Assembly: GCA_964106645.2 (NCBI GenBank)
Contig: OZ067044.1
Source: Podarcis pityusensis
Taxonomy: Eukaryota
Length of the DNA: 64,000 bases
Direction: 5' to 3' (one strand)
Position numbers and translations under genes: made by a program. The notes under the pieces were generated by a model. It searched no databases. It was not told where the DNA came from and saw only the letters and a program-made list of their open reading frames with translations. This document shows positions 19,603 to 63,800 of the stretch, piece by piece; positions within the stretch are counted from its first letter, which is position 1; each line of letters starts with the position of its first letter.

Positions 19603-20436
19603 CAGGGGTGTCAAACTCAAATTCATCGGGGGCCGCATCAGCAGTTTGGTCACCCTCAAAGGGCCGGTTGTATCAGTAGGACTATGTGTCCACTCTTTAT
19701 TATCATAAATTATTGTCACTGCATTCAATTATTACTGTTTTTTGTAATAATGTAAGTAATAACTAGCTCTGAAAGCAGAAACATAGTCAGAATAATGGCA
19801 AGTAGATATTCAAATGTACAATTATTGTACAATTTACTGAAAAATGATTTTTGGTAACAGACAGTAATTTTTTTTTTAAACATACAAATGTTGCCAAACA
19901 TTGTTTATTACACATATGGCAAACACAAGGCATTAACTTTTTTAAACTTTTCTGACTAGATGGCTGACATCGTTTTCCTGAGGTCAGTCCATCGATGTCT
20001 GGCGTTAGGTCTTGTGCTGTAGCAATCCGCAAAACAGCATGGAGGTTATCATCAGTGATGCGTGATCTGAGCTTGGTCTTGTTCAGATTCATGACTGAAA
20101 ACATCTGTTCACATAGATAGGTGCTCCCAAACATGGACAGAACACGTGCAGCTTGAAGTCGGAGCTGTGGCATCAATATAAAAACAAGTGGAGGTTTCCT
20201 GAATGCATGTAAAGTGGAGGTTTCCTGTGTAGAATGGCCGGCGCCGCTAGAGGGCAGACGTTCTCTGGCTTGTAGGCTGCCGCGCATGTGCTGAAGAGGC
20301 GGCTTTCTTGTGTCAAAAAAAAAAAAAAAAGCGAGAATAAAAGGTGAAGGCTGGCGGCCGGTGGCGGCTACACGGGCCACATGACGAGGTCTGGCGGGCC
20401 GGATTCGGCCCGCGGGCCTTGTGTTTGACACCCGTG
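19603..20436 (-). mobile_element. Young non-autonomous hAT (Buster/Charlie, GTF2IRD2-like) transposon, 834 bp
   Basis: TIR CAGGGGTGTCAAAC / GTTTGACACCCGTG (13/14), perfect 8-bp TSD CATTAGGG (19595-19602, 20437-20444), GGGCCG subterminal repeats, CpGs retained. Confidence 0.95.
19945..20173 (-). pseudogene. hAT transposase C-terminal dimerisation-domain remnant
   Basis: [72 protein letters not shown]; FGSTYxCEQxFS..K.RSRLTD motif; catalytic core deleted. Confidence 0.9.
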
Positions 20437-20552
20437 CATTAGGGAAACACTAATTTGTTTCCCTTAAAAACAGAAAACTCTTAAGGTTATACTTGCACTG
20501 TGAAATGTTAGAGATCTGTGTCAGATACTGCTTTTGCATGTCTCCTCAATAC

Positions 20553-21830: not shown

Positions 21831-22774
21831 TCTTAGAACCTTTAATTCAATTTATCTGTTTTGTCTACATGAGGTCTCTTGTTTTTATGCTGCTCCTTGT
21901 GATTTTATGGTTTCTAATAAATCTTTCTATGTTTTTAATAGCATGTTTTAAATTAAAGATAATTTGTTTTCAGATTTTGTATGGGTATAAGTCCTTCAGA
22001 ATTAAACAAAAAGTGTGTTGAATATAAGGTACATTGAAAATTACTACAGAAATATAGTGATCTTCCTTTTTGAGATAAAACTGAAATTTGCAAAGCAGTG
22101 AAAAAAGTTAAGGAGATGGATGTTAGAAAAACTCCTTTCTTGATAGTGAAGTGCTGTCAAATGTTTTATCTTAGGTACTTCACTGGTGGGCTTTCTGTCA
22201 TTCTAAGCATCTAACTGATCACTCTGTTTGGGAAAGGAATTTTACTCAACGTCCTATTGGTGGTCAGGAGTGGTTTTTTCCAGCTCTTATCACTTCCGCA
22301 GCATATGATCAAGCCTGGAAGTTTGTCTCATCAAAGTATAGCTTATGACAGCTTTCTTATTGCTGATAGCAAATGTGCTCCACAAGCACATACAACCTGT
22401 TGGATTCCCCCCCCCCCAACTCTTGTGGTATGCTAGGAATTAATGCAGTTTTATTGTTCTAAAAGTATCCCAAGATTTAATAAGTTTTCCATTTCAACAC
22501 CACATTCTGTACAGTTCAATGAAGAATTCCTGCACAGAAATCTTGCATCAGTTCCAGTGGCTATATTGGGTAGTCTATATTGTACATTCTGATATGCTTT
22601 TGTGCAGTCCTTTCGATTAATAAAATTATAACATCATGCTTACCTTTGATACAACTGTTGCCCTGCAAATATTTGCCATGCATATTGCTTGGGTTACTGC
22701 AAATCGGTTATTGTAATGTTTTTTTAGCATACCAGAAAAGTTGCTATAGCGTAAGATTCTACATAGTGTAAGTG

Positions 22775-33090: not shown

Positions 33091-34905
33091 TTTTCTAGTG
33101 GTCATCCTGACAACTATCCTAGCTGACATATTAGTTATTCTTACTGATTAAAATTTACCTTGTGGCGTTCTTCAGACAAGTGTCAGTTTCTAATCAAGGT
33201 ATAAAATGGTTCTAGTTTATTATGTTCCGAGGATGTGGTTGCAGAGTTGGGTAGAGAATAAGGAAAGCTGGAAAGTTACAGTGTCAGATTAGAGCGATTG
33301 CCTATGATAGACAGTGCAGGGATAAAATGCATATTGACCAAGTGTGTTTGCTAAATCTATTACTGAATGTCATACAAGATATCCCTGCAGCTGAAGTTAC
33401 ATAACGGCACTGAACATTTTCAGACTCATGTAGAACCTAAGATAAATGAACATGAAAGAATAAATAATGATGAAATATTTTTAAAAAGCAATGCATTTTT
33501 AAACATCACAGCATAAGTAATAGTGAATGATTAACATACCCTTTGTCCCTTTCTCAGATTGAAACCTAGCTCCCTCCATCCTCAATGGTATTTATTTCAA
33601 CATGTGAACCCAGCCCAGCAGACTAACCATGATTTCTTTTCTGCTAACAAACCTTAAGGTGAAACTGGTTTGTTATTGGTTTGCAAAACATGGCATGTGT
33701 GGGTTTTTTGCTTTTACTATGATTTGCCATTACATCCACACTCAACAGCTTTGCTTATCCATTGCTTGTTTGGCTGCCCCATCACAGATGCTCACCAAAC
33801 TACAAAGGCATGGGGTCTGAGATACTGAGAAACAAACCAAGCTTTGGAAAGCAAACCATGGAGAAGTAACCCATAGTTTGTTAAACAAACCATAATTAAA
33901 ACAAACCATAATGAAGCATTATGTGTTCACACAGCCATAGACTGGTTTAATAATAATCTGTGTGTGAAAAACTGGTTTTTGATCTCTTTTTCCCCCGTAG
34001 CAACTAATGATCTTTTATGGCTTCCATTGTGATGACAAGGAAGGAAGGTTGGTTCTAACCTCTTCCTCAAATCCCAGAAAATAGTTTTATCCCCTTCCTC
34101 AGATGTCAGCACTGAACACAAATGTTGTCCTGGTTTTAGCAGACAGTTACTTAGTGTAACTACTGACAGCTGCACTCTGACAGTGGTATAGCTGCTAACT
34201 GTTGATGTTCCTAGAACTATTAAATCCAACAGTGAGTAGAATATATTTTTCCAAATCTTTCAGCAGTTGAGAACACCATACGATTCAGCCATCTGTAACC
34301 ATTTCCTACTCAATGAGCCTCATTACAAGAAACCAAAAGTTATAATTAAAAGCATAATATTCCAGTTTTGTATTCCATATGGTGAACTGCTGAGAAAAGG
34401 CTAGAAATAAAACTTGAGTGATAGAGAACACTTCTAGTGCCATTAAATAATTCTCATTAGATATTAAGATGCACCAATTGGTTTAAAAACTAGAGGAGGG
34501 GGTGCTTTATTTATTTGTCGTCTTTCCTCATCTGTTGCTGTTACCTGGATTTGATATTTGTTAAAAGACTAGAAAGTGAAATCTGACCTTAATTTAAATA
34601 ATTCCCAGTGCTTGCCCATAAAAACTTGCTTATATATTTTGCTTCAGATATGGTGTTGGAAAAGCCTAAAAAAAGTGAGAAACCAGGGAAGTTCCTGCAG
34701 CTCATAGACTTTCCGCTATACTAAATAAAAATATTGACAAAAGGAATAAGATACTGCTGGCAATATGATGGTGGTGATAAAATGATATTTTTTTTAATTT
34801 TGTACTATTTCGGTTTTACATTTATTTTGATGGTAAACCACTTTGGCAGGGCATTTTCGCAGGAAGGCGACCCTAAATATTTTTAAATAAATGAAATAGC
34901 TTGGC

Positions 34906-35050
34906 TGAAAATTAAAGAATCCATATAAGGCACTGTATAAAGCAGACATTGTTAGCAACATTAATGACTTACTGGATGAAAATTAAAGAATCCATATAAG
35001 GCACTGTATAAAGCAGACATTGTTAGCAACATTAATGACTTACTGGATGA
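34906..35050. repeat. Perfect 71-bp tandem duplication
   Basis: TGAAAATTAAAGAATCC...GACTTACTGGA occurs at 34906 and 34977. Confidence 0.95.
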
Positions 35051-36516
35051 GGGTCAAGCAACTTTTCTGTAGCAAGGATGCATAATTGCTTAGAGTTTTT
35101 GATGAGTAAATGGTATATAAATTCTTCTAAATAAAAGCAACCTGTGGCCCTTCAGGTGTTCTTGTGACTACAGCTCCCATTATAGTCAGGGAAGATACAA
35201 GTCGTTGTCCAGCAGCATATGGCAAGCCAAAGATTGGTCACTCCAGAGAGAGTGGTAGAGAGTTTTGCTATTGGATTCAGTAAAATGTGGAATGTAGTGT
35301 TGGGTGACTCTCCCCAGCCTAATTCACAATTGTGCAAATTCTGCAAATATCCAATGGTCATTTAAAAATCATCATTTTTAAGCGCAGCCTCATTCCCATT
35401 CCAGTCTAAGATCCTATCTACTCTGGAGCACAAGAAAGCCTAGATGCCTCGTACTCACAGCTCCCTCAGGGAGCCGCATCTGTGGGAACCGCCATTACAC
35501 TTTACTAAAAAAAAATTTTTGCCAGCAAATGTGGTACTGCAAATTCACGTTTTAAGGTGCCAGAGCAGCTGCAGTGCCATTGAGTGATGTTGTTGAAGTT
35601 TCTTTTCTGGGGTGAGGGGAGGTCTGTTCTCCTACACAAGCCTATTCTAAGATTTCCCCCTAGATATCTGGTGAGTGTATTTGTGGATGTCTGTTTTTGT
35701 CATAACAACAGTAAGAACAACTGTGCCATGATTACAGATGGTGAAAAGGTTCAAATGGGATGCTATCTCCTTCATTTAACAATCAGAGTTCCTTTCAAGG
35801 TCCGTGGCTTAGGTTTTAGGTTTGCTTTTGTTGTCTCCTAAAGCTGTAATTGTCTAGTTGGTTAAATATTTGTGGGCATAACTTCAGAATATGCTTTCGG
35901 CATGTAACTCAAGGGGTTAGTCATTTTCTGAACAAGATTGCAGGGTTAACGAAGAAGTTGTATGTTGCTTATTCTCTTTCTCATTTTACTTTTTGGCATT
36001 TGTAGAGTCAGCCTTGTAGTTATCTTAGCCTGGAGTACACTGTTTTCTCATAATGTCAATAAAAGCCATACAGCTAGATAAAAAAAAGCAGCTATCAAGC
36101 AGATGGGTATTGTGATCGACCAGGAGAGAGGAAGAGACACCTAGAAATATGTTTTAGGTCCTCAGTTTCATGTCCTCTAGCCTTGCTCAGAGGACAAGTA
36201 ATTTTCTTGGGACTTCCCTTGAGCTCTGTTGAAGCCTTATTTGATGACATTAGCTGATAATAGAACTGTCCTGTTTTGGGAGAGTAATGGTTTTTACTGA
36301 GGATGAGAAACACCTTTGTTTTTTGAATGGTGATAACTTGAATTTGTTCACGGCAGCATGCTTCCCTTGTAGGAACTTAATTCTTTTATCCAAATCTGTT
36401 TAATATTTTTGTTTGATACACTTCCTTGTATACATTCCCTCCCAACATCCATATGCAATATAGATACTGTTATCTTCTCACTTGCTACCTTCAACTATGG
36501 CTAGGAATTCTGTATA

Positions 36517-36787
36517 CAGTGGTGCCTCGCAAGACGAAATTAATCCGTTCCGCGAGTCTCTTCGTCTTGCGGTTTTTTCGTCTTGCGAAGCACGGCTATT
36601 AGCGGCTATTAACGGCTTAGCGGCTTTAAGAAAAAGGAAACAAACTTGCAAGAACTCGCAAGACGTTTCGTCTTGCGAAGCAAGCCCATAGGGAAATTCG
36701 TCTTGCGGAACGACTCAAAAAACGGAAAACTCTTTCGTCTAGCGAGTTTTTCGTCTTGCGAGGCATTCGTCTTGCGGGGCACCACTG
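36517..36787. mobile_element. Young Tc1/mariner (Tigger/pogo-like) MITE
   Basis: TIR CAGTGGTGCCTCGCAAGACGAA / TTCGTCTTGCGGGGCACCACTG (21/22), TA TSDs, many TCGTCTTGCG repeats, CpGs intact. Confidence 0.92.
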
Positions 36788-36876
36788 TATAATAATATTG
36801 GATGATTTTTATTATTTACCATAAAATATTATCAAACTTTCCCATCATGCAATGCAATAAAAAACTAACTAATCTA

Positions 36877-39786: not shown

Positions 39787-40400
39787 CAGGGCCATCTTAA
39801 ACATATCCGGCACTGTGGTGCAAATATCTCTCCGGCGCCCCCCCCCCCCCGTTTCCCAGAGTTGTCGACCTTTTTTGGGGGGGGGGGGACTTCGGTCCGG
39901 CTCGTTTACATCATGTGGTCTGACGTGTGCTCGGCCCTGCACGTAAGTACATCGCAGCCCAGATGGCCTCCTGCGAAGCCTCCCTCTAAGTGCCTGGTGA
40001 CCCTTACCTGCCCCCATCTGGGGAAGGCCAGCAAGCAGATCAGGTGGCTTGCTGGCTGTGCCATCCTTCCTTGGCACCGGGATCGCACAGGGCACTTCCC
40101 TGCTCTGCTCAGAATCCGCAGGGAGGTGCACATGCAGTGACGCAGCCAGAGAGGGGTGCCCTGCGCCTGTCCCCAATCGCACCCGCTAGGCACCCAGGCA
40201 GCCCCGACGGGAGGGGACGCAAAGGGGCTTCCCTGAGCCGGACGCAGCATGCTCCCATGGGCGGCTGAGAGGAGAGGAGCGGGCTGCCCCAGAGCGGGGA
40301 AGGGAGCGCACTCTGACTCTCTTTCCCAGACACTCAGCCTATGGCGCCCTCCAAAATCTGGTGCCCCGTGACACTAACGTCTATGGGTAAGACTCCCCTG
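39787..40400. mobile_element. GC-rich non-autonomous hAT element, 614 bp
   Basis: Perfect 8-bp TSD AATTTACT (39779-39786, 40401-40408); imperfect TIR CAGGGCCATCTTA / TAAGACTCCCCTG; GGCGCC subterminal motifs. Confidence 0.85.
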
Positions 40401-40439
40401 AATTTACTTTCTGGTACACTGGAACCACTGCATTTACCA

Positions 40440-40935
40440 ATGGCCGCTTACCTATAAGTCTTGGGGAGTGGCGGTTTGTAGGCAAATCATGACAGTAGTT
40501 TGTCCACCGCCAGTTTACCCTACATGGCTGTTGTGGGGACACTCATGCCTTCCACCCATGGCTGTATGTTCACCTGTGTGGTGCCTGTTTCAAACAGGCC
40601 AATCTGGTTGGTACAGGGAGGTGTGGCTGTGATGGTAGACCTGGAGTTGGCAGTTCTCAACCAGGTCTGCCTAAAAGTTTTGAATCAAAGCCACACCTAG
40701 CCTCAACCTCAGATTGTCACTGGATTCCATGCCTTCCTTTCCTGTTTCGATTGGTCTGGCCTGAAGGTGAGCAGGCCAGGGCCTGTTAGACCTTGCTATG
40801 GAATACTCTGCTGCCTTATTTGGGGCTAGAGGGGAATTTTTCATGCAGACAAATTGGCTGGTCTGTAGGTTTTCACCTAGGTTTTCATAGCAATTGCCAC
40901 AACTTTTGGCATATAAGGCATTGGGTTTGATCCTT
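40440..40935 (+). mobile_element. Hairpin-rich TE fragment partly homologous to the solo LTR at 53968-54742
   Basis: 40789-40924 shares GACCTTGCTATG, GGAATTT, TTGGCTGGT, GGTTTT, CACAACTT and AGGCATTGG in order with the reverse complement of 54363-54513. Confidence 0.65.
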
Positions 40936-41271
40936 AGCTAAATAGGTACTTAAGTCAAATCAGAGCAATCTCATTAGGACTGCCATCTGGAAGGGTGCTA
41001 TGCCCAATATCTAGTTTAATCCTATTGCAATCAATGGGCCAAATATAACAGAAATCCTAAAATGTTAGTTCAGATAGGTTGTGGATTTTTGTGTTAGTTA
41101 CAGATATATGCAGGGAATATTAATCTTCAGTCTCATCCACAGGTGCAGCCATGGAAAGTTAAACTTTCTTAGCCTTATCGTTCCCAGTGACCGCATGCAT
41201 GCCTCCCATTCCCAGTCATCAGAAAATTTAGTGTGATAGTCTACACACTGCTGCTTGCACACTTCTTACAG

Positions 41272-41685
41272 GCATATGATGTTCTTCTCGTAGATGCCCC
41301 CATATGTTCCCTTGCGCATGGTTCTATGGTTTCCATAGATGGGCAGGATTATCCCAGGAACTCGGAGGATAAAAGGGCAGAGGTTTTGTTGCAGAGGTCA
41401 CACGAAGCTTCTGCATTACCCATTAGAATCTCAGCTGCAGCTTCTTACATGGTCAGGGTGGCTTACATCTGGGTGACTGAGTTTGTCAATGTTAAGCAAG
41501 GAATAGCAAAGCTAGCCAAGGCCTCTGCCTATGTGTCTGATGCCTCATCAGATGCCTTGCAATTTGCAGCAAGAGCCATAGCAGCAGACATGGCAGTGTG
41601 CAGACAGCTCCGGCTTAAACTGTGGCAGGTGGGCACCAAAGCCAAAACCAGCCTGACCAGTGACCCCTTCAAGGGCCACATCTGA
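41272..41685 (+). pseudogene. DIRS1-type retrotransposon gag (LAP2alpha-like domain) remnant
   Basis: VDAPICSL..DG..EDKRAEVLLQRSHEASA..W..KQGIAKLAKASAYVSDASSDALQFAARAIA..RQLRLKLW..KTSL...PFKG fits the DIRS gag pattern (VDAP..D.K.E..ADA..D..AR..RR.LWL..W...PF.G). Confidence 0.8.
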
Positions 41686-41702
41686 GTTGTACTGAAGAAA
41701 GG

Positions 41703-41706
<4 letters not shown>

Positions 41707-41737
<31 letters not shown>
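41707..41737. repeat. (GT)n microsatellite
   Basis: Direct inspection. Confidence 0.95.
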
Positions 41738-41739
<2 letters not shown>

Positions 41740-42125
41740 TTACTAAGTTTCACCACAGCTGCATTGATTAACAGAGATATACTGCTTCCTCTTGTTTTAG
41801 GTCATACAAGTAAGTAAGAAGTCCTTCAAGTCTAGAGTTAAAAGAAAGATGAAAGCAAATCAGCCTTGTCTTGAGAATGAGTCCCATTTGACAGATGTTT
41901 CCAAAAGATTATTACAAGCAAGGAATACACTCTCAGGTTAACCAACTGTACAATTTTGTCCAAGTCCACTTGGAAATAAGCCCCATTAAAGTTGGTTGGG
42001 CCTACCTCCAGTTAGGAGTAGAATTGCTGTCTAGATAGATAAATAGATAATCAAATAACTGACAGAAGAAACTACTGCCAGTCTTGTGCATGTATATGTG
42101 ATATTTCACCTTTGTCCCTGTAGAA

Positions 42126-51146: not shown

Positions 51147-51292
51147 GCTGGGATAGCTCAGTCAGTAGAGCATGAGACTCTTAATTTCATGGTTGTGGGT
51201 TCAAGTCCAATTTGGTGCCAAAGTTTCCTGTATTGCAGCGGGTTGGACTAGATGACCCTCGTGGCCCCTTCCAACTCTGGAGTTCTATGATT
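51147..51292 (+). mobile_element. tRNA-Lys(CTT)-derived SINE with CR1 3' tail
   Basis: TAGCTCAGTCAGTAGAGCATGAGACTCTTAAT..GTGGGTTCAAG matches tRNA-Lys-CTT with a decayed acceptor stem; followed by GGGTTGGACTAGATGACC..CCTTCCAACTCT..TTCTATGATT. Confidence 0.88.
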
Positions 51293-52530: not shown

Positions 52531-53967
52531 AAGGGAATAAAATTATCAAAACTTGGTTTCCTTTCTATGCTAAGTTTACTCTTTCTCAAAAATAAAATGA
52601 ATTCAAACATGGAAAAATGTAAACATCTAAAGCTGTAGAACAAAAAAGAGGAAAAACATGCATTTTCTTAGAGACATCAGAGTATCAGAGAGGTTAAAGA
52701 GATGCTGATTTTTCTACTGAGTGCTATATTTAGAAATCGCTTGTGTGGAAGAAATGTTCTGCTTGCACGCCCAGAGAATGAAAATCAAGTCAACTCCTTG
52801 GGCAATTTTATCACAGAAAACTTGGTGGTTTTGTTTTTTTTCAACAGCAACATTTTATTAAAATCTTTCATTTTGATAGAAATTTTATAGCTATGACTGT
52901 TGCTATATTTTGGAAATCTTCTCACTCGTGGGAACCTGTTAAATAGACTACAATACTTTCCTATTAAAAGACAGAATATAGTTTGAGGGGAATAAAAGGT
53001 AAGCATTTTTCATTCCAAATGAGGATTGAAAATAAACATTTAAAGACTTGGTTAAATTGAGCCTAGAATTTCCTCTGGATAATTTCTATGAGTTTTATCC
53101 TGTGCTTCACAAGCAGAGTTCCATTCTCTCTTTCTCTCTTCTCCTTATGTGACCCCAAAATCTACTCAGAGGGTGCATGTGGGGCTCAAGGGAAGAAGAA
53201 GGGGGAAGTTCCATCATGCAAGTAGACGTCTGGTGCTCAAGCCTAACAGCACTGTTGGGACGCAATGTGCTTATTAATTATGTTGATGTTTGTGCTTTGC
53301 TATGGATAGAAAACCTGCTAGAAGAAATCACTGATCAGTGTAATTGTTCTGTATTCATTTTAATACCTTATTGCCATTGTGTTTGTAGCTGCTCTGAAGA
53401 AATCACATTAAGCCGGAGCATCAAATGAGAAGCAAGCATGCTGCACTGATTTACTGTCACACTTTGTTTGGCGAATAAATGTGTCCTTTCTGATTCCATG
53501 CTTGGGGTGCAATGTGGACTTAGATGCAGCCCAGTCCTTTAATCTTAAATGTAGCGGGAATTTTTCATCCGTAACTTGCCTAATTAAATACTTTTATTTA
53601 TAACTTGCTACCTAAGAAATTCAGAAAGTAGCTTCCAATCGCAACAAAATATTGTTATAACGTATAAAATTCAAAGTCAGTGAAACAGCAGAAAACATGA
53701 TGTAAATCAATAATGAATAAAATGTAGTTGTTTGGTAAAGCCCCAGACCAAAACAAAACAAAACCTGCCCCCTAAAGCTCAGCAGATTAGGTGCCACAGA
53801 GAGGCTGTTCTGCAGCTAGATCACTTCCACAGAAAAGGTCCTAACTCCAACTGCCTCCAAGTAACTTTTGAAGGCAGGGGGCAACCAGAGAAGGGTCTGC
53901 AGAGATTATTTTAACAAATCTGCAGTTCAAATGGAACCATCACCTGTCTTAGTGAGAAACCTTTGCG

Positions 53968-54742
53968 TGTCGAGGTCCCCAAGCCACCCCCCAATAACTC
54001 ACACATCACACATCAATTTTGGTTAGGGTTTTTGGCACGATTTTGGCCACAACTTTATTTAAATACATCCAAGTGAGTGGTTGCTTAGGCATTGGTTCCG
54101 ACTATCTGTCCTTGCCCTGGGGACAGAACTGGACTTCCGGATTCCAGCGAAAGCCAGTGCGGGAAACAAATTTTGGGGAGAAAATGAAGCTGGGCCTCAG
54201 TCCTTCACTTCTCACCCTCATGCTCCTGGTGGCTTGCACGGCCCAAGTCTGATGCCAGGGACAAGGACGAAAAGAATGGCAAGCCCCTGGATGCCTTTAA
54301 TGGAATTCCCTTTCCGCACCACCATTGGAGGGGTAGGCACTTACCCCTCCACCAACCAATTTGAACCAATGCCTAACCGCCAACCTTACAAGTTGTGACG
54401 ATTTGCTACGCAGTAGGCAAAACCAAATGGCACCAGCCAAACAGCCAAATGGACAAATTCCTACCAGGCCCCTGACTCAAAGCAGACGACCCCATGGCAG
54501 GCATAGCAAGGTCAAGCGAACAACCCCCCCCCCCCAATACAGGGAGGGTGGGCGGGTGATCTGGTGCAAGCAGCCAAGAGAACACTCAAAGTTGGGCGAC
54601 CAGTATTTAAAACTTCTGACCCCTCCTTCAAAATTGGCAACAAGCAGTTCTCCCCAGCGACCCGATTAACCAATACACTGCCTGGGTCCCTCCACAAATC
54701 CGCCCAGCAACAATGGGGTGGCTTGTATCCCCCACTGCAACA
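53968..54742 (-). mobile_element. Solo LTR, 775 bp
   Basis: TGT..ACA termini; flanks TGCG/CGCA (consistent with a CpG-decayed CGCG 4-bp TSD); on minus strand GGGCGG (54700-05), CCAAT (54633-37), TTTAAATA (54604-11), AATAAA (54054-59) and a GT-rich downstream element in the correct order. Confidence 0.75.
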
Positions 54743-56519
54743 CGCACTCTCTGCTAGGGAGAACACGTTTTATCAACAGTGCTTTGCTTCTGAAGGAAGA
54801 GATCTCTTTTGCTGTGCGAGTAAGCATCCTGAAGCAGATGTGGCACCATGCAAAAGAAGAAGACCTCTTCCTCCTCCTCTCTTTTCTAACCACAGCGAAC
54901 TGCAGAGCTTGATCATCTGTGCCAAAGCAAACAGAACAAGAATCGGATGAACTTTACAAACGAGTAGAGCAAGGACAGCATTATTTTACCACACAGCATT
55001 TCCTCAGTCTTGGGATAGGACAGATAGGACTGACTGTGGCCAGAGCAGAATTCTACTCCCCATGTACTAAGCAACCTCCCCTGTGGTTTGTACGTCAGTC
55101 ATGAATTCCCCAATACTGTGGTGAGGAGAGCTGTATGCCTTTTCTCAGTTGGTGCCTGAGCCTGTCATGACCCTTGGTTTTGTGTCTCCTCTTCCAGTAT
55201 AAAATAACATATGAAAACAATAACAAGTAAATTTCATTATTTTGTTAAGAATCTTCAGTAATGCTTCTTCGTGTCCCAGAAACATCACATACACACAATA
55301 TGGATAATACATGTCAGATTCTTGCAAAAGCAATAAATTACTTCCCTGTTCCATTATACTATGATACACACCTTTGCTTGGCCTTTATTTTAAGAAGGTA
55401 CAATAGGATTGGGCTGTGAGTATCATATTGACTTGTTGTGTTCAACTATATAAACACTTCAGAAAAGTCTCCTCTTTCCCTGTAGTGCAGCTAATCATTA
55501 TTTTTCTTTATATCTGCCACATAGGTGTGTCTCAATTTGGACAATATTTGGAATGCTGTTGTTTTGTTTTCTTTAACAGAAACACAATGCCACAATTATC
55601 AGTTTGTGAACAAGGTCATTGCAATAGACAGCAACATTGACGTGTTCCCAGGGAATGTACTAACCGTGAACTTTTATCCACAGGGGGGAAAATGCAAAAT
55701 ATTGGTTAAAGGCAGGGATTTCCTTGAAGTATGTAACAAAAAGTGATGGATTATACTGCAATGAACAAGAGCACTTATTTTACTCAGTGTAATAGAAGTT
55801 CTTAGACATACGTTTGCAAATATTTATTTTACTCACTACTTTTTGGAAGATTTGGCAAATTGGCTAACTGATTACCACTGTTACAGAAAGCATGCAGAGT
55901 CTTGTAATCTAAATGTTAATTTGCTCATAGAGTTTCATTCTCTTCTGTGGAAAGAGAAAGAAAAGAGAAAATACTTTCCTGATTCCAGTTGTTATAATTA
56001 TGCCATGTTTTGTTTTTGTTTTCCTTAAATTGTTTTGGTTTGGTTTAAGTGGAGCTTTGTAGGTGGCCGAATAAGAACTTCGAAATTAGGCATTCTGTAT
56101 AGCTTTGCCACATGCAGAAGAGAACCTTACAAATAAATAAAATTGAGCAGTCTGATAAATACTATAAAATGATGACATTCTGTATTTCAAACTGTGAAAA
56201 CAGAAATGATAAATATTTAGGTATCCCAAAGATCCCTCTTTTCTCACTAACCACAGTGAAATTAGATGTTGTTTTTTAAATCGAGTCTCTAGCATAGCTT
56301 GAGCAGCAGTGGAGTAATTCAACAAGCATTAGACAAATACTCACATTTTAATGGCATCTGAGTATAATCAGAGATAGAAGAATACATTTTAACTGCAGCA
56401 TTATTTAAATCACTGAACACGTGGGGGAACTTTAGGATACAGAGAATGCCAAGACAGCCAGAATGGCAATTGTATAATTAAAGGTGGCATTTCCCTTTTG
56501 TTAACTATCTAAGGCTGGT

Positions 56520-60243: not shown

Positions 60244-60622
60244 GAAATGTTGGTCTGGGGAAATAGTGGTCAAAATATACTGTGACTAACCTGCAAGTGG
60301 CTAATGTCAAAGCTGCTCTGTTTTGCAATTGTTGTTTTGACAATGAGGGAATAAGGGTGTGCTAATATAAACTTACATTGACATCTTAAGATCAGCTCAC
60401 TTCCTCTGATGTATCCTTGGCATGGGACATTGTAGGAACAAGAAATGCAGCAGATATAAAGTGTGGGAAAGAGCAGATGACCATAAAAGCAAATAAGTTG
60501 ACGTCAGTGCAGATAAAAACCCTCTCTAAATGTAATCAGCAGTACATTCCTACTTTCTTAAACACTGGAACTTCCCTTAACTATAAATATAACCATGGGG
60601 CGTGATTCTGACCAATCATATA

Positions 60623-60858
60623 CAGTGGTACCTTGCTTTAAGAACAGCTTAGTTTATGAACAACTTGGATTAAGAACGCTGCAAACCCGGAAGTAGGTGT
60701 TTTGGTTTGTAAACTTTGCCTTGGAAGCAGAACATATTCCACTTCCTGTTGAGTGTGTTCCATTTGTAAATTGAGTCCTCCACTGCTATGAGAAAGCACG
60801 CCTTGGTTTAAGAACGGACTTCAGGAACGGATTAAGTTCGTAAACCAAGGTACCACTG
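60623..60858. mobile_element. Tc1/mariner (Tigger-like) MITE
   Basis: TIR CAGTGGTACCTTG / CAAGGTACCACTG with TA TSDs. Confidence 0.9.
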
Positions 60859-63800
60859 TATGGTCATCTTCTTGTTCTCGCTAGGGTGGCCAGACGTAAT
60901 GAGAAAATGGGGTTCGTGTTCCTTTTAACAATTGCACAGATGAGGGAATTTTGGTAAATGCAGCTTGTTGTGCAGAGGTGAGAAAATCTGCATCTGCTAA
61001 AAGTCCTCCCAATACATACTTCTGAAAAGTTCAGAACCCTTCTTTCTTTACTTCTGACAACTTAGATTGTCACTTGCTTTCTTTCTTAGTTAAAAAAAGG
61101 AATAGTGGCACTGCCATTTCTGCTACCCACCTTAGGTGAAAATGGCGTGCAGTTGTGGGTCCCAACCACTAGCATATCTGTGTCTTAGGAGTATTTTATT
61201 TTATTCATTAAATTTGTATACCGCCCTATATCTGAAGGCGGTTCACAGACAGTACAGGGCATCTCATTTGATAACTATGACTACAACCAACTGATGTCGA
61301 AACATTCAGATAGAAGCAATATACTGAAATTCTGTGGTCAGCATTGCCAATGCCCCCAGTCTGAAAAATATGGTGTTTCACATGTACTAACAATGTGTTG
61401 CTGCATAGTGAAATATTACTCTGAAATCTGTTTACGCTCATTTAATGTAGCTGTGCCATGGTACTGATCATCACTATGTGAAAATGTCATTCTTCTTTCT
61501 TGAAGTATCAGGGCTCCTGCTGACTTTCAGTTTTGCATGTGGATGAAAGGAATGTGTGCCTTTGAAAAGCTTTTTTTATTAGAATGTGCTAATGAAGCTT
61601 TAGGGCTCTCAACACTGGATAAGATAATCCATCATATTTGTGGGTGTGAGCATGACCATGCATATCTCTGACTACTTTTTGCATTTTATAAGGGTTGACT
61701 TCATCCCTGCTCCCCCTTTTGTAAGGGCTCCTAAGGCTTCTGCCAGTTAGACTCTAGACAGCTAACAGCAACTATGGGAGTGATACTGATAACGGAAACT
61801 CTGGTAAATGACATTTCAGGAACCGTGTTGTGTGCTCAGACTTAATATGAGCAAGAGGATTTCTAAAAAGATGTTTAGGGGAGATATTTTCATGCCTTCT
61901 ACAAATAGTTCCAGCACATAGTAGTTCCATCATATGCTTCCACCACACCAATACACTTGTACTAACCTCATTGATTTACATTGGTCCAGCAATACACAAT
62001 TAAAGCTTGTCCAACATCTGCATGCTTATTTGAGAATCCCTGTGGCAGATAGATTCATCACAATATAGCAGCTCCATCCCAGGTGTAGGAGCTCTACATG
62101 GACTTCCCATTTGCTGCTCTTCCCTTACCCCAGGGTAAGGAAAATGGGTACCAGGATCCTGTGTGTGTGCTAGAATGCACATAGTGCTGTGGATCAAGAA
62201 TTTGTCTGCTAAAGCATTTATTTCCTATAGCTACATCTATAAAAACCTGATGCAAATAAGTCTTTTAATAGATCCATTTTTTTCGCAGTCAAGAAGAGAC
62301 TGAGGGGAAATAAAACAACACATATTTGGGTCAAGTAGTCTGATCTAGCAAACACATAGTTCTTGAGATTTATAACTTTTTGACGGGTTCAGGAGAAAAG
62401 TTTGCTTTTAGTGTATTGCAGTCTGCTTCTATTGCATGTACTAACAGGCTACAGTTAGTTGATTCTGTTTAGAACAAGCATTTCCATCAGCCTTTGCATA
62501 ATTTCACACTAATAATGTGGCTGCCCTACATTAGCTGTTCAATTGCACAATAAATCACTTGTTTCATGTGTGTCCTCTGTTTCTGGTGGCTTACCAAATG
62601 TGTTATGCATCAAGTCCCTGCAGTTATGAAGACCTTGAGACTATCATTAGTTTTCATTTTCCTTCGTTGACACAGACACAATTTAGTCTTCTTCACAGAG
62701 ATGTTGTTGCATGAGTGTAATAGGCTTTAACAGTTTATGACTTTTGATGTACTGTTTCTGTTTGAGATTAAGGCAACATTTTCATTTTGAAAGCTTCGGT
62801 ATTTTTCCTCCTTCCCTTTTAAATGAACACATTTATTAGACACCTTTTCAGCCTTCAAAGATAACAGTGATTTGTGTTTTGCCTCTTTATATGTGTTAAT
62901 TTCATAAGAATAGCTGCAGTTATTTGTGAGACGCAAAGATGAAATAAACTCTACAGGCAAGTACCGAAATGTTTGCCTTAGCATCATCATAATCACCATT
63001 GCTTATTTGTAGGCCACTTTTCCATGGTAAACCATGCTCAAAGCAGCTCACAGCATTAGAAAAATGTGCATAATAAAACATAACATTCAAGTATAAGGCA
63101 CCAATTACAAGGCATAGCAAATCTCAATAGTCATACAGATGTTAATAGGCTAATCAAAATATCTTATCTTAATAAATATACAATAAGATCAAACAATTAA
63201 CTAATTCATAATAAGGCATATCCTACGAGAACACAATACAAATAGCAGGAAAAATAATGCATTATCTTAAAAACTAAATGTTTTCCCCAGCAACCGCTAA
63301 ACTAAAGCCCACCCTGATGGCTTCTAGGCATCTTGAGCAGCCTTTATAGCTGGAGTCAGTCAGCTGCACTGTGATGTTTCACTTGGAGAATAACTGTGAT
63401 TCAAACATGAATTGCATTTACAATAATAACTTGATAATAATGACAAAATCAGTCTTTAGTGTTGTTACTTTGGAATAGGTATTTAATGTAGTTCCACTTA
63501 AGGGCATTCCAATTTCAAAACATTACTCTTCGTATTTTTCAAACTTACTTTGAAGTTGCCTTATAAATATTCAGGGTGTGTGTGTTCTTAAAACTAACAT
63601 TGTTTCATATGGATAGGCTCAAATGCTGCTGTTCCTTTGGAGGAATAAAATATGTGAATGCATAAAAAATCAGGTAGAAGTGAGGGAGTTTCCCAGTACT
63701 TCCCATTATATGTCTTAATATTGTATCTGTGGTAAATGAAAAATAAAACTGTTTGAATGGAGATACACGAAGTAGGCAATCCAAAATTCTCCTCTTCCAG

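Follow-up and report, generated by a model that had tools for sequence, protein, structure and literature searches.

The window analysed here is a stretch of 64,000 nt from Podarcis pityusensis (assembly GCA_964106645.2, contig OZ067044.1). It is rich in repeats, has a GC content of about 40%, and contains two copies of a structured motif, copy 1 on the plus strand and copy 2 on the minus strand (Table 1). The remnant that hosts copy 1 has its left edge at a high-copy insertion, while its right edge is uncertain and lies at about 40950-41000. The adjoining high-copy repeat is GC-rich and covers about 39790-40400, with its left edge placed by eye; contig depth over 40250-40396 was about 40-220 times the single-contig level. 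A perfect 10-bp hairpin (54326-54351) was found immediately 3' of the copy-2 tail.

Several other features were recorded in the window. A tRNA-like match at 51147-51219 (+; Rfam, 40.8 bits) could be either a gene or the head of a SINE, and two related MITE-like short elements with 26-bp terminal inverted repeats lie at 36513-36791 and 60620-60861. An ORF at 19790-20449 (-) gave a weak match to the hAT dimerisation domain (E 0.013), and 34902-35043 holds a 71-bp tandem duplication of exact period whose units are 99% identical.

Table 1. Positions of the motif copies, their helices and neighbouring features in the window
Feature	Position	Strand	Basis or remark
Remnant hosting copy 1 (approximate)	40404..40996	+	contig depth; single contig upstream of motif
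Long hairpin upstream in copy-1 host	40596..40698	+	z -6.9 for 40580-40699; exceeds motif stability
Copy 1 of the motif (three-way junction and 3' tail)	40789..40925	+	folding, alignment, anchored shuffles
P1 5' arm, copy 1	40793..40803	+	
P2 hairpin, differing between copies	40811..40829	+	MFE
P3, copy 1	40832..40878	+	lower GG/CC stem, U-rich internal loop, upper stem, UUGG-bearing apical loop
P3 U-rich internal loop, copy 1	40835-41 / 40870-75	+	
P3 upper stem and loop, copy 1	40844-50 / 40861-67; loop 40851-60	+	
P1 3' arm, copy 1	40883..40893	+	
Conserved tail, copy 1	40894..40937	+	forms hairpin P4 (40895-40911) locally or serves as arm for long-range pairing
Decayed DIRS1-type ORF1 fragment (LAP2alpha domain)	41098-41754	+	Pfam profile search
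Putative copy-2 host, ~780 bp, non-coding	53963..54746	-	imperfect inverted termini of ~28 bp
Long-range partner of copy-2 tail	54046..54098	-	complementarity, folding
AATAAA	54054..54059	-	only one on minus strand in 53800-55100; bracketed by long-range duplex
Copy 2 of the motif	54361..54513	-	folding and alignment with copy 1

Structure and homology of the two copies

The original prediction, which was made from the sequence of the window, had described copy 1 as an outer stem enclosing a GG/CC stem, an upper stem and its loop, with several retained words. Our analysis located all of these elements within 40789-40925. P1 of copy 1 was formed by 11 pairs including one G-U, with pair probabilities of 0.82-0.99 and 0.36 for the end pair, and the upper stem reached 0.67-1.00. 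The closing pair of the GG/CC stem (40833-34 with 40876-77) had a probability of just 0.05, because a slipped GAA/UUU register competes with it. Neither of the two intervals originally quoted was unusually stable, the thermodynamic z being -1.04 for copy 1 and 0.01 for copy 2. When copy 2 was cut at 54363-54513, its MFE differed from the proposed shape, which sat 1 kcal/mol above it.

Segment 40789-40925 is a true homologue of 54513-54361(-). Local alignment of the two motif regions scored 56 against a null of 20.4 +/- 3.4, a score reached by none of 500 shuffles, and seven short blocks followed one another in identical order in the two copies. The words GGAATTT, TTGGCTG and GGTTTT, which had been listed as retained, were present in both copies and in the same order. 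The downstream flanks did not align significantly (P 0.45). Upstream of the motif the absence of alignment was likewise upheld by the significance test (P 0.18), although one long local alignment runs weakly through about 40620-40788. The upper stem had been called entirely different in sequence, and in this the original prediction was mistaken. When the stem was aligned by structure, for which the 3' arm has to be moved by 2 nt, 3 of the 9 pairs were identical between the copies; three others had changed on both sides, one had changed on one side, and two were broken in copy 2. The comparison of folds drew on the two full copies and on contig ends of other families. A third candidate copy at 22205-22310 (+), CR1-like in appearance, aligned by eye; it scored 4.3 bits, which did not exceed the best score in 23 of 30 shuffled windows, and was rejected.

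Conservation of the fold and its sharing among repeat families

The tests of structure conservation were applied to the upper stem and to the whole fold. With register shifts allowed, random mutation gave at least 7 of 9 pairs of the upper stem in 21-32% of trials, and a second, anchored null gave P of about 0.3; arm shuffles returned 0.064 and 0.026. As the register-tolerant null gives a near-chance P (0.2-0.3), the upper stem taken alone is weak evidence. For the whole fold, 27 pairs were aligned by hand. Here 18 of the 54 positions differ, and 25 and 26 pairs are canonical against 16-19 expected (P <= 0.0011), in a test that is biased by the hand-picking of helices, including P4, which conflicts with the long-range duplex described below. 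Five of these pairs had two-sided and four one-sided changes, and all four one-sided changes pass through G-U, so an RNA read on the motif strand is favoured. We further shuffled each copy 600 times with the 40 shared anchor bases fixed. The three-way junction recurred in 3.0% of the copy-1 shuffles and 2.3% of the copy-2 shuffles. As for the constrained energy, no copy-1 shuffle equalled it, and 0.5% of those of copy 2 did. A pair count on the two-row MAFFT alignment found 60% paired, below shuffles, the structure being out of register with that alignment. Selection on RNA structure, as originally proposed, is thus supported by the whole fold but not by the upper stem, which performed near chance.

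We then compared contigs from three genome runs (X1, X3 and X5) and one RNA run over 40250-41690. Over 40446-40739, X3 and X5 each had about one contig; X1 had none there. Depth peaked over 40887-40935 in all three genome runs, including X1, in which the flanking locus is not covered. The peak reached 3650 against a single-contig depth of 80 in X3 and 606 against 16 in X5, that is about 37-46 times, and 2764 in X1; these depth sums should not be taken as copy numbers. Contigs part from the window sequence in groups of 8-12 before 40885 and in groups of 3-7 beyond 40926-40939. Loose ends at both places (40885 and 40926-40939) do not resemble it, and the groups at 40937-40939 show poor mutual agreement (0.54-0.58). 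Because contigs stack on the 3' block and then enter unlike flanks, the motif is common to many repeat families, and the P1 3' arm together with the tail is the block most widely common to them. The upstream loose ends carry AATTGG, a different arm and GGGTTT(C/T)GCCTTCC, keeping the layout with different letters. UUGGCUG, which is retained in both window copies, is not retained as a whole in these contig-end family members, where the CUG after UUGG is missing. Taken together, these findings agree with the prediction of a module shared between TE families insofar as the block occurs in many repeat families with unlike flanks, but a swap between unrelated TEs was unsupported. A common ancestral terminal repeat is preferred, since descent explains the data more simply.

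Among the 176 sites of 40821-40996, contigs show 7 and 11 differences, and in the flank 30 in about 720. This divergence matches that of the flank, so there is no sign of extra conservation at the copy-1 locus, and from these alignments copy 1 looks like a neutrally decaying fossil. In the hairpin 40596-40698 the related contigs had 3 listed differences, as against about 20 in 40438-40583, and one of the differences in the hairpin converts a U-G pair to C-G. Of 15 reads from the single RNA run, about 12% of which was covered, none was at least 95% identical to copy 1; five RNA reads came from a relative less than 95% alike and run on into GGAATTTT. The runs had been chosen by a search with the copy-2 region, whose occurrence in them suggests a repeated or shared sequence; among the runs listed for that region there was no RNA run.

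Pattern scans for the motif found none in viral contigs and none in prokaryote genomes. The sole metagenome match (L001) was without the upstream blocks, and 20+1 prokaryotic or viral matches to a CR1-type pattern were all without a P1-like flank; both were judged to be chance. A plasmid search gave one match (E 0.5). Neither copy had an Rfam match at gathering score, and the best sub-threshold hit (E 0.11) lay outside the motif. The supplements of PMC4316615, PMC3266345, PMC4746887 and PMC5786205 held no full motif match, and the literature searched, with Dfam, Repbase and subscription papers outside the search, nowhere described the motif. Retrotransposon ends with structured cis-elements are already known as a kind; the motif reported here appears to be undescribed.

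A predicted long-range duplex at the poly(A) signal and the class of the hosts

The tail of copy 2 is complementary to sequence further downstream in the same unit. Positions 54376-54363 pair with 54098-54085 at 14 of 14 positions, and about 54400-54391 with about 54055-54046. This duplex tile was the best among 2130 window tiles (-40.9 against a mean of -19.3, sd 4.3). The same copy-2 tile was also the best partner for the tail of copy 1 (-33.5; runner-up -31.3). The unconstrained MFE of 54515-54030 contained the complete junction together with the long-range duplex, and the 14-bp arm had a probability of 0.98-0.99 in all four copy-2 segments tried. Over these segments the z-scores were unremarkable (-0.9 to -1.7), and the probability of copy-2 P1 dropped from 0.71 to 0.2 or 0.0 when more upstream sequence was included. 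Only the final base(s) of AATAAA are taken up by the duplex, and most of the signal stays unpaired. In the model this signal, about 350 nt downstream of the motif, would fold adjacent to the junction. Because the copy-2 tail pairs with sequence bracketing the sole AATAAA, a poly(A) site is predicted beside the junction. The long-range duplex is also our explanation for the tail being the most widely shared block. At the copy-1 locus the 3' partner of the duplex is missing, and there is no AATAAA until 41985. The local alternative for the tail, P4, is possible in both copies with one two-sided change but is weak (z -1.06 and -0.74), and in copy 2 it is displaced by the duplex (probability 0.02-0.03 versus 0.74-0.82).

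Coding sequence gave little indication of the host class. No Pfam family was found in 12 same-strand frames around both copies, and no remnant of RT, Gag, recombinase or hydrolase beside either. Two readings by eye, 40470-40560 as a Ngaro Gag zinc finger and 54680-54590 as the end of a recombinase, were without Pfam support and were dropped. The LAP2alpha fragment had 191 relatives at E <= 0.001, some of them fused to RT; it was rejected as part of the motif host because it stops short of the motif. The copy-2 unit, which the original prediction had labelled an LTR, is not flanked by a target-site duplication at 54742/53968 or at 54746/53964. One TG...CA pair with a 6-bp flanking repeat was found (54694/53921), with a chance estimate of about 0.1. 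Neither 53850-54900 nor 40250-41800 contained a long direct repeat, and a solo unit would show none. Weighing these observations, we consider a host in Ngaro or elsewhere in the DIRS order slightly more likely than not, and regard a class outside both this order and LTR elements as doubtful and an LTR element as somewhat more doubtful still.

Candidate roles and comparison with known elements

On balance, we favour the interpretation that the motif would be an undescribed cis-acting 3'-end or replication signal in retrotransposon RNA, inherited by sister families. It may have belonged, as an RNA element, to the non-coding terminal repeat of a vertebrate retrotransposon lineage, most likely Ngaro-type tyrosine-recombinase elements that survive as solo repeats, a class to which we infer membership. 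Sister families would have received the motif by descent and kept the fold while their flanks diverged. The duplex would close the transcript end into a loop and bring the poly(A) site to the base of the junction, where invariant loop bases might be read by the RT or Gag of the element, or might hold the tail. Reading by RT or Gag would serve template choice, priming or strand transfer. Selection would have acted on the source elements, leaving copy 1 as a truncated fossil that lacks the 3' partner. Fold and duplex are computed, and recognition by RT or Gag is inferred.

The alternative readings partly overlap and are not all mutually exclusive. One of them, a more specific form of the favoured signal, would make the motif an ENE-like stability element, in which the U-rich loop of P3 binds poly(A) as a U-A-U triple helix after the duplex has delivered the tail; we regard this as tentative and rather doubtful. 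The loop strands hold 5 U and 4 U in copy 1 and 3+1 U and 4 U in copy 2, and the G-C pairs beside the loop are conserved, GG/CC being identical in both copies. A G-C-flanked U-rich loop is the pattern given for ENE searches in the accessible part of PMC7583470, the predicted folding of the poly(A) signal next to the junction in copy 2 would fit, and the plant element Evade is described as more mobile with its ENE (PMC12501189, in part). Nevertheless, the tracts are short, that on the 5' side of copy 2 is interrupted by G, and one contig-end variant has just 3 U on the 3' side. The invariant AA that separates GG from the U tract is able to pair with the U tract on the other strand of the loop, and in copy 1 the open loop has a probability of 0.05 with slipped pairing favoured, although the loop is open in the copy-2 MFE. 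No Rfam match to ENE-type families was obtained at E <= 10, and the conserved apical UUGG is left unexplained. A switch between poly(A) sites, with P4 and the long-range duplex deciding between the copies of a repeated poly(A) signal, appears improbable. The displacement of P4, which can form in both copies, and the covering of the last base(s) of AATAAA speak for such a switch, but P4 is weak, the signal is mostly unpaired, and the three-way junction is left unaccounted for.

Flanks that are unlike on both sides would also be expected of a portable module that moved between unrelated TE classes, and a 10-nt word of a contig-end motif variant is also retained by one CR1 consensus (PMC4316615, supplement); the match is just 10 nt because the alignment, as available in that source, has the ORF2/UTR boundary cut out. 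We consider such movement unlikely, given that the CR1-like candidate at 22205-22310 was insignificant and that the two hosts resemble each other in being rich in hairpins upstream, as expected of sister families. Finally, the motif z near zero, the chance-level upper stem and the hand-picked helices might all be accounted for if both copies were decayed members of a single family, without function and paired by coincidence. This we judge very improbable. The motif is strongly homologous while its flanks cannot be aligned, the depth peak is restricted to the motif, the junction was rare in the anchored null, and the copy-1 tail is still complementary to the copy-2 3' region. Ordinary copies of one family paired by chance, the outcome that was to count against the original prediction, are not what we found.

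We speculate, as a bolder and unlikely extension of the favoured signal, that a three-way-junction module present in many vertebrate retrotransposon families, possibly in both YR terminal repeats and CR1 3' UTRs, clamps poly(A) in a U-rich loop after delivery by the duplex; it would then be either the vertebrate counterpart of TE ENEs or the missing replication signal of YR elements. For the host animal, the copy-1 locus is probably of little consequence. Since the motif is compact (about 140 nt), is conserved in many diverged families and has a defined long-range partner, the question of DIRS priming, or of a vertebrate TE ENE, becomes testable; the motif could also be used as a structural probe to classify non-coding repeat remnants. 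Similar 3' ends are, we assume, present in lizard and frog elements of the Ngaro/DIRS group, and a stem, U-loop and stem element resembling the motif presumably occurs in amphibian and turtle CR1 3' UTRs.

Compared with known systems, the copy-2 unit shares with a solo LTR the ends TGTTGCA (54742) and CTCGACA (53974-68), which resemble the TGTTRNR...YNYAACA consensus (PMC3601003, in part), as well as AATAAA at 54059 with a GT-rich tract behind it (about 54012-53998), a trait that is not LTR-specific. In contrast to a solo LTR, it has no target-site duplication and its inverted match reaches past TG...CA. CR1/L2 3' UTRs likewise carry a conserved hairpin at the retroelement 3' end, proposed in the accessible text of PMC4316615 as an RT recognition site, but neither motif copy has a CR1 ORF2 or octamer-repeat tail beside it. 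The ENEs of KSHV PAN RNA, MALAT1 and plant or fungal TEs such as Evade resemble the motif in the order stem, U-rich loop, stem, in the G-C pairs beside the loop and, on the prediction for copy 2, in lying at a non-coding end near a poly(A) signal, whereas P3 is an arm of a three-way junction and comes with the invariant AA, the apical UUGG and the long-range duplex. Those in TEs are reported almost only from plants and fungi in the portions available of PMC12501189 and PMC7583470, and the list in the latter names plants, fungi, slime mould and stickleback but no reptile.

A further comparison is with the tyrosine-recombinase elements. DIRS-1 retrotransposition requires an internal complementary region (ICR), and the primer for reverse transcription in DIRS is given as unknown in the accessible part of PMC7192593. 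As in the DIRS1 ICR, an internal sequence of the copy-2 unit is complementary to sequence near the 3' end; here, however, the complement is the poly(A)-signal region and not the extreme termini, and the unit ends in imperfect inverted termini of about 28 bp rather than ITRs of about 120 bp with TTT ends. Ngaro elements have the split-repeat layout A1-[ORFs]-B1A2B2 (PMC9210276, in part), and the window is without such direct repeats or ORFs. At about 780 bp the unit is also longer than A+B of Xenopus DIRS-53_XT, 236+152 bp in the available portion of the same source. Our guess is that the host of copy 2 is a solo Ngaro-type repeat. Solo AB repeats of Ngaro have been reported in the accessible part of PMC8547959. 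Like such repeats, the copy-2 unit is non-coding, with a poly(A) signal and without a target-site duplication.
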